64,000 nucleotides of DNA from Bacteroidia bacterium (lineage in GTDB: Bacteria > Bacteroidota > Bacteroidia > CAIKAF01), in NCBI GenBank assembly GCA_016742095.1, contig JACVCJ010000007.1, positions 59,854-123,853 on the forward strand, written 5' to 3'. Made by a program: the position numbers and the translations under genes. Below are positions 20,554 to 21,426 of the stretch, piece by piece. The notes beneath the pieces are model-generated. The model was not told the origin of the DNA. It was given only the letters and a program-made list of their open reading frames with translations, and did not search any database. Every line of letters starts with the position of its first letter. Position 1 is the first letter of the stretch.

Positions 20554-20934
20554 TTAAACGGGAACTCTTCTGCTTTTCCTAGCTAACAGACCGGGGATAA
20601 CATCATCTTCAGGGGTCATTCCGACAATAACGGCATGTGCATCATTGGAATAATCTTCACTATATATAGGATCATGATGTGTACTTAAACCTTCTATTTC
20701 ACAAACCTCAGCATTACTTATTTCAAAAAGGAAGTACTTTTTAGCATCGACGATCGCAATTTCAGGCTTAGTTAATGACCTGACCTCTACAGACAATTCG
20801 CCGTTATCTTTTTCCCGTAACCGAAATACCCTCGATGTAGCGGTACCATCCGGATTCATATAATTATGTTCCGGTTTATTGTACCCTCGTCGGTACAGAT
20901 GTTCATCTTTTCCTACGGGTCGGCGCTCTTTCAT
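20554..20934 (-). CDS. hypothetical protein, third gene of the AT-rich cassette
   Basis: 126-aa ORF with ATG at 20932-20934, 7 nt downstream of the preceding ORF. AT-rich codon usage unlike the flanks. No family motif recognised. Confidence 0.6.
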   Translation of the reverse strand: MKERRPVGKDEHLYRRGYNKPEHNYMNPDGTATSRVFRLREKDNGELSVEVRSLTKPEIAIVDAKKYFLFEISNAEVCEIEGLSTHHDPIYSEDYSNDAHAVIVGMTPEDDVIPGLLARKSRRVPV

Positions 20935-20940
20935 TACAGA

Positions 20941-21426
20941 TTATTTCTTATTGAGCCATTGAAGTATTTCAGGCATTTTATCGTCGGCAAAAACTTCCTG
21001 ATAAGGCTGCTCTGTATCCGGAAAAAAAACCACGACTTCCCTGTTGGGATAAAAAATGATCTCAACCGATCTTTTCTTTGTTTTGTTTCTAATATCAAGC
21101 ATTATTTCACCGTCAGGACCGGGTGCTGCATGAAATATTGGATGCCCATGTCTTTCTAAAAGACTTGCCAGGAATCTTGCACGTTGAACAGCTGTAGGCG
21201 AAGGAGCCAGAGCCCCATCTTCGTCCCAGTTATTCTTCAATTCAGAATATGCATTCAGCAATTCTATTATTCTCGAATTCAAGGCATAAGGGTTCGAGAA
21301 ATCCGCTTTTACAACGATACCTGAACCGGACATATCCCGTTCAATATATGGTCTGTAATCACATACGGAAGGATTTAGCGCCGTAACAACCAAATGGGTA
21401 GTATAGTTATCGATCAAGGCTGGCAT
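20941..21426 (-). CDS. hypothetical protein, second gene of the AT-rich cassette
   Basis: 161-aa ORF with ATG at 21424-21426, overlapping the upstream gene by 20 nt. The C-terminal half contains NWDEDGALAPSPTAV...HAAPGPDGEIMLDI. No family assigned. Confidence 0.6.
   Translation of the reverse strand: MPALIDNYTTHLVVTALNPSVCDYRPYIERDMSGSGIVVKADFSNPYALNSRIIELLNAYSELKNNWDEDGALAPSPTAVQRARFLASLLERHGHPIFHAAPGPDGEIMLDIRNKTKKRSVEIIFYPNREVVVFFPDTEQPYQEVFADDKMPEILQWLNKK

Follow-up and report, generated by a model that had tools for sequence, protein, structure and literature searches.

A TIGR04255-led three-gene cassette in a Bacteroidia genome encodes a predicted ADP-ribosyltransferase-fold protein and its proposed antitoxin

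Two described systems come closest to the locus considered here. The first, PDC-M32 (PDC-M32A plus PDC-M32B), was catalogued as a PADLOC phage defence candidate by Payne, Hughes, Fineran & Jackson, being one of 145 untested candidates recovered through guilt-by-embedding in restriction-modification (RM), BREX and DISARM systems (bioRxiv 10.1101/2024.01.29.577857), and it has been seen in a Sinorhizobium prophage (PMC12429752). The second, CmdTAC, is a proven anti-phage system of the toxin-antitoxin-chaperone (TAC) type, in which the chaperone is reported to sense a phage capsid protein, lost chaperone binding leads to degradation of the antitoxin and the released ADP-ribosyltransferase (ART) toxin modifies mRNA (Vassallo, Doering & Laub, Nature 2024, PMC11618068; the TAC mechanism is also the subject of preprint 10.1101/2024.02.24.581848). 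Here we describe a cassette of three genes within a stretch of 64,000 nucleotides from a Bacteroidia bacterium (assembly GCA_016742095.1, contig JACVCJ010000007.1, positions 59,854 to 123,853), hereafter the window. We call A the TIGR04255 gene (247 aa), B the 161-aa open reading frame (ORF) that follows it and C the 126-aa ORF behind B. Protein C is predicted to have an ART fold, and we give a probability of roughly 0.6 to the reading that the trio is a tripartite toxin-antitoxin (TA) or abortive-infection/anti-phage module in which C is the toxin, B the antitoxin and A a helper or sensor.

The three genes and their products

An initial annotation of the window had singled out B and C as two coupled, unassigned ORFs behind a TIGR04255-like gene. 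The ORF listing bears out three consecutive ORFs on the minus strand, which form an operon, and all the peptide motifs quoted for B and C in that annotation are found in the translations. The elements are as follows.

21407..22150, minus strand: gene A, TIGR04255-family protein of 247 aa, proposed helper or sensor
21292..21426, minus strand: gene B, N-terminal extension (residues 1-45), predicted to be disordered, with a conserved tip
20941..21291, minus strand: gene B, residues 46-161 and stop codon, alpha/beta domain, proposed to neutralise the toxin
20554..20934, minus strand: gene C, 126-aa protein with a predicted minimal ART fold, PDC-M32B superfamily, proposed toxin/effector
20887-20892 (R15/R16), 20833-20835 (S34) and 20635-20637 (H100), minus strand: key conserved codons of gene C, from alignments

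Gene B as a whole, 161 aa in the ORF listing, occupies 20941..21426 on the minus strand. Its ATG at 21426 lies 20 nt inside A, whose end is at 21407, and the stop codon of B is followed by a spacer of 6 nt, the ATG of C (20934) being the seventh base past that stop. The 20-nt A/B overlap is common to the close relatives checked, and the geometry that had prompted the suggestion of translational coupling is thus conserved.

The AlphaFold model of C has a pLDDT of 95.3, and in a wide VIA-align search with C at least 46 of the top 50 rows were recognised as members of the ART superfamily. The top match was the NAD+ lobe of KptA/Tpt1 (Z 8.1, root mean square deviation 3.0, 91 residues aligned, covering residues 84-180 only of the KptA chain), followed by Tse2 (Z 6.9, 106 aligned), mouse Tpt1 (6.3), Runella Tpt1 (6.0) and AvrPphF (6.0), with Scabin (5.3) and diphtheria toxin (5.0) lower down. 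Further ART toxins and enzymes in the list were DarT, NarE, Tne2, Arr, TreTu and TreX, and it also held pertussis and heat-labile toxins, the SidE family, RES and the CARDS toxin. A Foldseek search of C against the PDB agrees, weakly, with KptA, AvrPphF and Tne2 on top (E 0.07-0.3). We assign the ART fold because the list is so uniform, which would be hard to explain otherwise, and not on the strength of any single Z-score; on the predicted structure, C would be a member of the ART superfamily. The protein that had been called conserved-looking from its sequence turns out to be strongly conserved and enzyme-like, with the predicted fold of ADP-ribosyltransferase toxins, and the evidence points to the 126-aa protein as the effector of the pair, a choice that the initial annotation left unmade. 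C matches no NCBIfam family, and searches of PDB sequences with C and with C-superfamily profiles returned chance-level matches only.

Invariant positions in the alignment of C comprise R15, the stretch N-P-D-G-x-A-T-S-R-V-F (residues 27-37), R40, S48-V49, H100, G105, D110 and a few more. A profile search of 1.84 billion cluster representatives gave 147 relatives, nearly all of them stand-alone proteins of ~115-150 aa, across which R15, R16, F37, S48, P89, N97, H100 and L117 are at least 90% conserved; S34, like R15/R16 and H100, is at least 90% conserved or invariant. Toxins of the R-S-E type carry Arg and S-T-S motifs and a catalytic Glu. Judged by the order of secondary-structure elements, L-Y-R-R on strand 1 of C would correspond to the Arg of these toxins, A-T-S before a short helix to their S-T-S motif, and N-x-A-H100, with which a strand begins after a loop of 12 residues, to the ExE position.

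For B, AlphaFold gives residues 1-33 a pLDDT below 50, and confidence climbs only from about residue 46. The N-terminal tip has the consensus MPALIDNYT, in which M1 is invariant and L4 and Y8 are at least 90% conserved, and is followed by ~35 variable residues; Y8 falls outside the 20-nt overlap with A. Residues ~50-161 are predicted at pLDDT above 90 to form a discrete domain of helix, helix, five strands and helix, in keeping with the earlier impression that the C-terminal half of B is a small alpha/beta partner domain, and its invariant positions include W67, P75, PGPxGE (102-107), R113, E122 and Y126. B matches no Pfam or NCBIfam family. In a fold search its best match was Mediator Med17 (Z 7.2), with the TriTu immunity protein (Z 6.8, 76/87 residues aligned), frataxin, type III secretion system (T3SS) chaperones and tRNA-synthetase anticodon-binding domains among the others. 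TriTu is the immunity protein of the ART toxin TreTu, and its likeness to B was rejected as diagnostic since it ties with the frataxin, Mediator and chaperone folds. A search for fused (longer) forms of B found none, which by that search's own caveat is weak evidence. Among the viral structures of BFVD, stand-alone uncharacterised phage proteins of 114-141 aa resemble the B domain (best E 1.9e-5, TM 0.73 on the target), one of them from a Tenacibaculum phage, whose host belongs to the Bacteroidota; going by these models, they could be phage-encoded antitoxin mimics.

PADLOC profiles connect both B and C with PDC-M32. C matches the PDC-M32B model PDLC04579 (E 2.9e-5, residues 28-103 on profile positions 17-92 of 123) and thus falls within that superfamily, and PDC-M32B models are also hit by 26 of 50 profile relatives of C, at E values as low as 5e-27. 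In the PDC-M32A profile, which has 375 positions, the folded domain of B aligns with positions 254-366 (E 0.002), and local iterated hidden Markov models (HMMs) also link it to the C-terminus of PDC-M32A. Comparison of B with a PDC-M32A protein by hhalign gave E 6e-4 at a probability of 29% only; because hhalign probabilities of the query alignments against single PDC-M32 proteins are low (22-29%), the family link rests on the PADLOC HMM results. Neither of the larger proteins spans the whole of PDC-M32A (~375 positions), B covering only 254-366 and A having no match. The N-terminus of PDC-M32A was considered as a diverged TIGR04255 protein and this was rejected, the TIGR04255 profile matching a PDC-M32A protein with an hhalign probability of 0.2%. 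At one PDC-M32 copy (genome G166, L023/L075, 1097-1489), the small protein resembles the family over its first ~80 residues only, with alignment to phrog_31579 positions 1-79 and to C-profile positions 11-57 or 11-92, and its tail matches another phage family, phrog_2104; this gene looks truncated or recombined.

Protein A, TIGR04255-like in the initial annotation, is a member of NCBIfam TIGR04255, scoring 73.9 bits against a cut-off of 30 (E 1.7e-20) over positions 1-251 of 252. It has no match in Pfam or PADLOC and no sequence relative in the PDB, where the TIGR04255 profile gave chance-level matches only, and the ESM Atlas held merely unnamed clusters for A and B.

Relatives, acquisition and control region

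The initial annotation reasoned that a lack of homologues would mark B and C as spurious ORFs. A set of 5.8 billion proteins contains 118 homologues of C and 45 of B at E <= 0.001, the named ones mostly from Bacteroidota (Ferruginibacter, Hanamia, Cytophaga, Bacteroidales). The linkage also held in every related locus looked at, with A-B-C in the same order and at tight spacing in 17 of 17 related Bacteroidota loci (15 from species-representative genomes and two from a search of sampled genomes). A close homologue of C is present in 3 of 401 sampled genomes of the phylum. When the C-superfamily profile is used, the gene is found in 15 of the 401, and in 14 of these a B-like domain is encoded directly upstream on the same strand, the fifteenth lying at a contig end. 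The upstream part takes three forms: TIGR04255 plus B in four genomes (G000, G043, G167 and G009), a fused PDC-M32A of ~385-416 aa in seven, and, in three (G118, G120 and G332), a B-like protein 135-232 aa long with no TIGR04255 gene. Since adjacency holds in 14 of 15 genomes across these three architectures, the B-domain/C pair is the conserved core and the front part varies. The domain of B, earlier compared with partner domains that adjoin toxins, does recur directly upstream of toxin-like genes.

Over 12 intact A-B-C cassettes, mean pairwise distance is highest for B (0.59), the fastest-evolving protein, and lowest for C (0.41), the slowest, and pairwise distances correlate with r=0.82 for A-B, r=0.60 for B-C and r=0.44 for A-C, values that shared descent inflates. 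Decay takes several forms: C is frameshifted with B intact at two loci (L018 and L019), A has two in-frame stops with B and C intact at one (G009), and all three genes are broken at one (L011); two of the decay cases are metagenome-assembled genomes, where assembly error is possible. The pattern of distances and decay fits a TA pair. As in type II TA systems, the small genes are adjacent, co-oriented, coupled and linked, and their distribution is sporadic and mobile.

Of the 401 genomes, 25 (~6%) have a TIGR04255 gene, and the family is found in other phyla too. Two ORFs in the same orientation come after the gene at 25 of 25 evaluable Bacteroidota loci, and the nearer of them begins -89 to +12 nt from the stop of A, often with an ATGA overlap. 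The larger protein seen in front of the pair in the window thus belongs to a family that heads many such trios with other toxins. The third gene of the trios varies, and may be C-like, PemK/MazF-like (E 8.5e-15; L037, L040 and L044), DUF7689 (E 4e-36; L041), HEPN-like (E 0.004, below cut-off; L036) or from one of several families without a name. Depending on the type of third gene, the middle protein has a different C-terminal part, and the B-like domain was seen only where the third gene is C-like or of one of a few other kinds. TIGR04255 is used modularly, including with classic toxins.

Other trios with unrelated third genes were seen at L039, L042, L053, L060 and L061. One recurrent, unnamed third-gene family of 180-270 aa has a Ser/Thr-x-x-Cys-Asp motif (e.g. 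SNTCD, SQSCD) and could be another toxin type; for third genes of the 'HANI-GWP' type (L038, L046, L048 and L049) iterated HMMs gave no link to C, and homology is not claimed. The first 8-10 residues of the middle proteins at 23 TIGR04255 loci follow a loose pattern, M-x-[A/T]-[L/T]-[T/I/L]-x, across toxin types (MSALTLQG, MSTLAMHY, MLATTIDI, MPALIDNY), and in this small and partly related sample the pattern could be a shared TIGR04255 docking tag. No full-text literature match was found for 'TIGR04255' or 'DUF7689', 'PDC-M32' turned up in one paper, and in the part cited here of Gerdes 2024 (PMC10865869), which treats long class-8 HicB proteins, no separate head gene is described.

The trio was acquired horizontally as a mobile cassette, gained as an indel between the thrC-like gene and clpB.

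20542..22314, minus strand: inserted cassette of 1773 bp, delimited by the GC profile and by the empty site in a congener

This conclusion is drawn from four observations, namely the low GC of the cassette, the empty site in a congener, the differing contexts of related loci and the presence in only 3 of 401 genomes. GC is ~0.36-0.45 across ~20500-22300 against 0.52-0.60 in both flanks. The same-genus genome G401 has thrC-like and clpB flanks 93-96% identical to the window and merely ~40 bp, with a terminator-like hairpin, between the convergent thrC-like and clpB stops. At related loci the flanking genes vary from genome to genome, and GC of the cassette is mostly below that of its flanks. 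No terminal direct or inverted repeats and no target-site duplication were found flanking the insert. An 11.1-kb sludge-metagenome contig carries thrC, cassette and clpB at the same site with ~95% identity, the sole listed length change inside the cassette being one extra base in the B-C spacer. The sludge strains related to the window (runs X1 and X3) have this extra C at 20934/20935, making the spacer 7 rather than 6 nt and leaving both reading frames unaffected. Pieces of the cassette are present in bioreactor and wastewater metagenomes of other studies, and in the metagenome runs searched no contig joins across the cassette.

Two features define the control region between clpB and A.

22254..22281, minus strand: clpB terminator hairpin with a 12-pair stem and T-rich tail (terminator scan), the upstream border of the control region
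22189..22196, minus strand: TACATTTG, a candidate -7 promoter box that lies 38 nt ahead of the start codon of A

The -7 consensus of Bacteroidota is TAnnTTTG. The TACATTTG box at 22189..22196, which we take to fit it, is from its sequence a candidate promoter element. In five relatives (L005, L006, L009, L016 and L017) a TAnnTTTG box ends ~5 nt before the A start codon, a position that suggests a leaderless or nearly leaderless mRNA in these genomes. Between the clpB terminator and A there are also two copies, 49 nt apart, of a 17-nt direct repeat with core ATTTGTGAC (window positions 22177-22193 and 22226-22242), the proximal copy overlapping the TACATTTG box; 11 relatives show no conservation of the repeat ahead of their cassettes, which makes it a local feature, perhaps an operator. 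One 213-nt contig from an RNA library spans 22091-22303 and was not counted as expression, its strand being unseen and DNA carry-over possible. Just upstream of the Algoriphagus cassette (L016, 3440-4436, minus strand), two small overlapping ORFs may be an MNT/HEPN-type toxin-antitoxin pair, from a nucleotidyltransferase-like N-terminus judged by eye.

Proposed mechanism and alternatives

We propose that C would be toxic as a stand-alone cytoplasmic ART-fold effector, most likely one that draws on NAD+ in modifying or depleting a target in the cell. Its putative active site would combine Arg15/16 (strand 1), Ser34 (behind strand 2) and His100 (past the 12-residue loop). B would be the cognate antitoxin, its C-terminal alpha/beta domain binding and blocking C, and its disordered N-terminal extension with the conserved tip would provide a handle through which A acts. 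A would be a generic helper that contacts B and stabilises, senses or regulates it, by a logic like that of a TAC chaperone; if A lost its hold on B, for example on phage infection or under stress, C would be freed. The link to defence is made because PDC-M32 was catalogued by its embedding in RM, BREX and DISARM systems and because it occurs in a prophage.

A number of observations weigh against this proposal. The single Z-scores of C (at most 8.1) are within the range of unrelated models, values of 7-8 being common according to the tool. C has no Pfam ART match, indeed no Pfam match at all at E <= 1 and, for 50 relatives, none that is relevant at E <= 5, and it lacks a conserved catalytic Glu, E71 being K or R in some relatives; for these two reasons its NAD+ chemistry is not established, and to our knowledge the same is true of Tse2, a close structural match. 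B is without a diagnostic fold match and without a DNA-binding domain of the kind that allows type II antitoxins to autoregulate, Pfam and NCBIfam searches of B and A having returned no HTH, RHH or AbrB family. The same two databases gave no SecB-type match in A, B or C, so that by sequence A is not the SecB-like chaperone of a TAC system. The cassette in the window sits among housekeeping genes and outside any defence island, a search of IMG/VR viral contigs with the close-family alignment found no relative, and PDC-M32 itself is a catalogued, untested candidate (bioRxiv 10.1101/2024.01.29.577857). Shared descent, as said above, also affects the distance correlations.

In an alternative account, B and C are an ordinary selfish two-component addiction pair with no antiviral role, and TIGR04255 is a co-transcribed accessory or regulator. 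Pairs of B-like and C-like genes without TIGR04255 do exist in G118, G120 and G332, A has decayed in G009 beside an intact B and C, and neither a defence-island context in the window nor relatives on viral contigs were found. However, TIGR04255 is kept as the first gene in every one of the 25 evaluable trios, whose toxins are of unrelated types, A covaries more tightly with B than B does with C, and the related PDC-M32 was recovered through its embedding in known defence systems. We regard a purely selfish pair as unlikely, though more probable than the other alternatives.

Less probable still, at odds we would call long, is that C is a non-toxic enzyme that modifies NAD or nucleic-acid ends, for instance by Tpt1-like removal of a 2'-phosphate or by ADP-ribosylation that is reversible and regulatory, with B and A as regulatory or substrate-presenting partners. 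It takes its appeal from the best structural match, the NAD+ lobe of the repair and processing enzyme KptA/Tpt1 (Z 8.1), and from the missing catalytic Glu. Yet C is without the N-terminal RNA-binding lobe of Tpt1, its distribution is sporadic and shaped by horizontal transfer, it is frameshifted at some loci where B is intact, and the same slot behind TIGR04255 is filled elsewhere by MazF-like and HEPN-like toxins.

We consider it very unlikely that an interbacterial (polymorphic) toxin-immunity pair akin to Tse2-Tsi2 or TreTu-TriTu is formed by B and C, despite the matches of C to Tse2 (Z 6.9), TreX and TreTu and that of B to TriTu, which ties with unrelated folds. C is a stand-alone protein with no delivery domain, and no signal-peptide-like N-terminus was seen in its translation. 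Its neighbours in the window are the thrC-like gene and clpB, with no Rhs, VgrG, PAAR or type VI secretion system (T6SS) genes nearby. The order of antidote then toxin, with coupling, is typical of TA systems and the reverse of most effector-immunity pairs, in which the immunity gene comes after the toxin. The idea that the ORFs are spurious or decaying and functionless, to which the lack of Pfam families for B and C and the frameshifts in some relatives might be thought to lend weight, is effectively refuted by purifying conservation (homologues number in the hundreds, share 40-65% identity, keep invariant motifs and show few indels). Confident fold predictions for both proteins also speak against it, as does an intact copy in the window that recurs at the same site, on one contig, in a 95%-identical sludge strain.

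If the tripartite module is what we propose, the cassette joins the catalogued candidate PDC-M32 to the much larger set of TIGR04255-led three-gene modules, and would offer a handle on the function of TIGR04255; beyond the PADLOC listing, no publication was found on TIGR04255-led trios or PDC-M32 pairs. It would also provide an ART-fold enzyme of just 126 aa together with an inhibitor domain of its own, and the putative active site of this enzyme would be unusual. The small ART toxins DarT, CmdT and RES each revealed new targets, and a Glu-less ART family could do likewise. More tentatively, and as a possibility that we would not yet favour, TIGR04255 may mark out a large and so far unpublished class of tripartite conflict systems, where a generic head protein would read a short N-terminal tag on the antitoxin and so control unrelated toxins (MazF-like, HEPN-like or ART-fold), the ART member having a Glu-less Arg-Ser-His site whose chemistry or target would be undescribed for ADP-ribosyltransferases. 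With three proteins only, the set lends itself to direct tests by genetics and structure determination.

Comparison with known systems

The cassette resembles PDC-M32 in that C is of the PDC-M32B superfamily, B has a folded domain equivalent to the last ~110 positions of PDC-M32A, and a small ART-like gene directly follows the gene carrying this domain, usually overlapping it. It differs in having a third gene, which encodes TIGR04255 and comes first, and in lacking the N-terminal ~250 residues of PDC-M32A; B bears a disordered extension of ~45 residues instead. The cassette is therefore outside PDC-M32 in the strict sense and is a three-gene variant in which TIGR04255 replaces the N-terminal part of PDC-M32A.

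With the other TIGR04255 trios it shares the head gene, the tight coupling and the order of a middle protein followed by a toxin-like third gene, whereas its third gene has a predicted ART fold and is neither MazF-like nor HEPN-like nor of DUF7689 or another such family, and the A/B overlap in its subfamily is 20 nt in place of the more usual 4 nt. The likeness of C to ART toxins and enzymes (the KptA/Tpt1 NAD+ lobe, Tse2, DarT, RES and R-S-E toxins of the cholera and pertussis type) lies in the predicted split-sheet fold and may extend, for the R-S-E toxins, to the strand-1 L-Y-R and to the T-S before the helix, which resemble their Arg and S-T-S motifs. Unlike those enzymes, C has 126 aa only and no accessory lobe, and carries an invariant H100 where the catalytic Glu would be expected.

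TAC antitoxins carry their ChAD element at the C-terminus. In B the disordered extension of ~45 residues, with its conserved tip, is N-terminal, and binding of A to it is our proposal for how it might act as an addiction extension. The cassette further departs from TAC systems, CmdTAC included, in that A is a TIGR04255 protein with no SecB-like match and its gene comes first, whereas the chaperone gene is last in TAC; no CmdTAC model was among the PADLOC hits of C, taken up to E 1. What the two have in common is the number of components, a toxin of ART type (predicted here), an antitoxin with an extra segment that lacks structure and a third, generic protein that goes with toxins of various types. 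The components are not homologous by sequence, and it is in its presumed logic that CmdTAC is the closest characterised analogue of the cassette.

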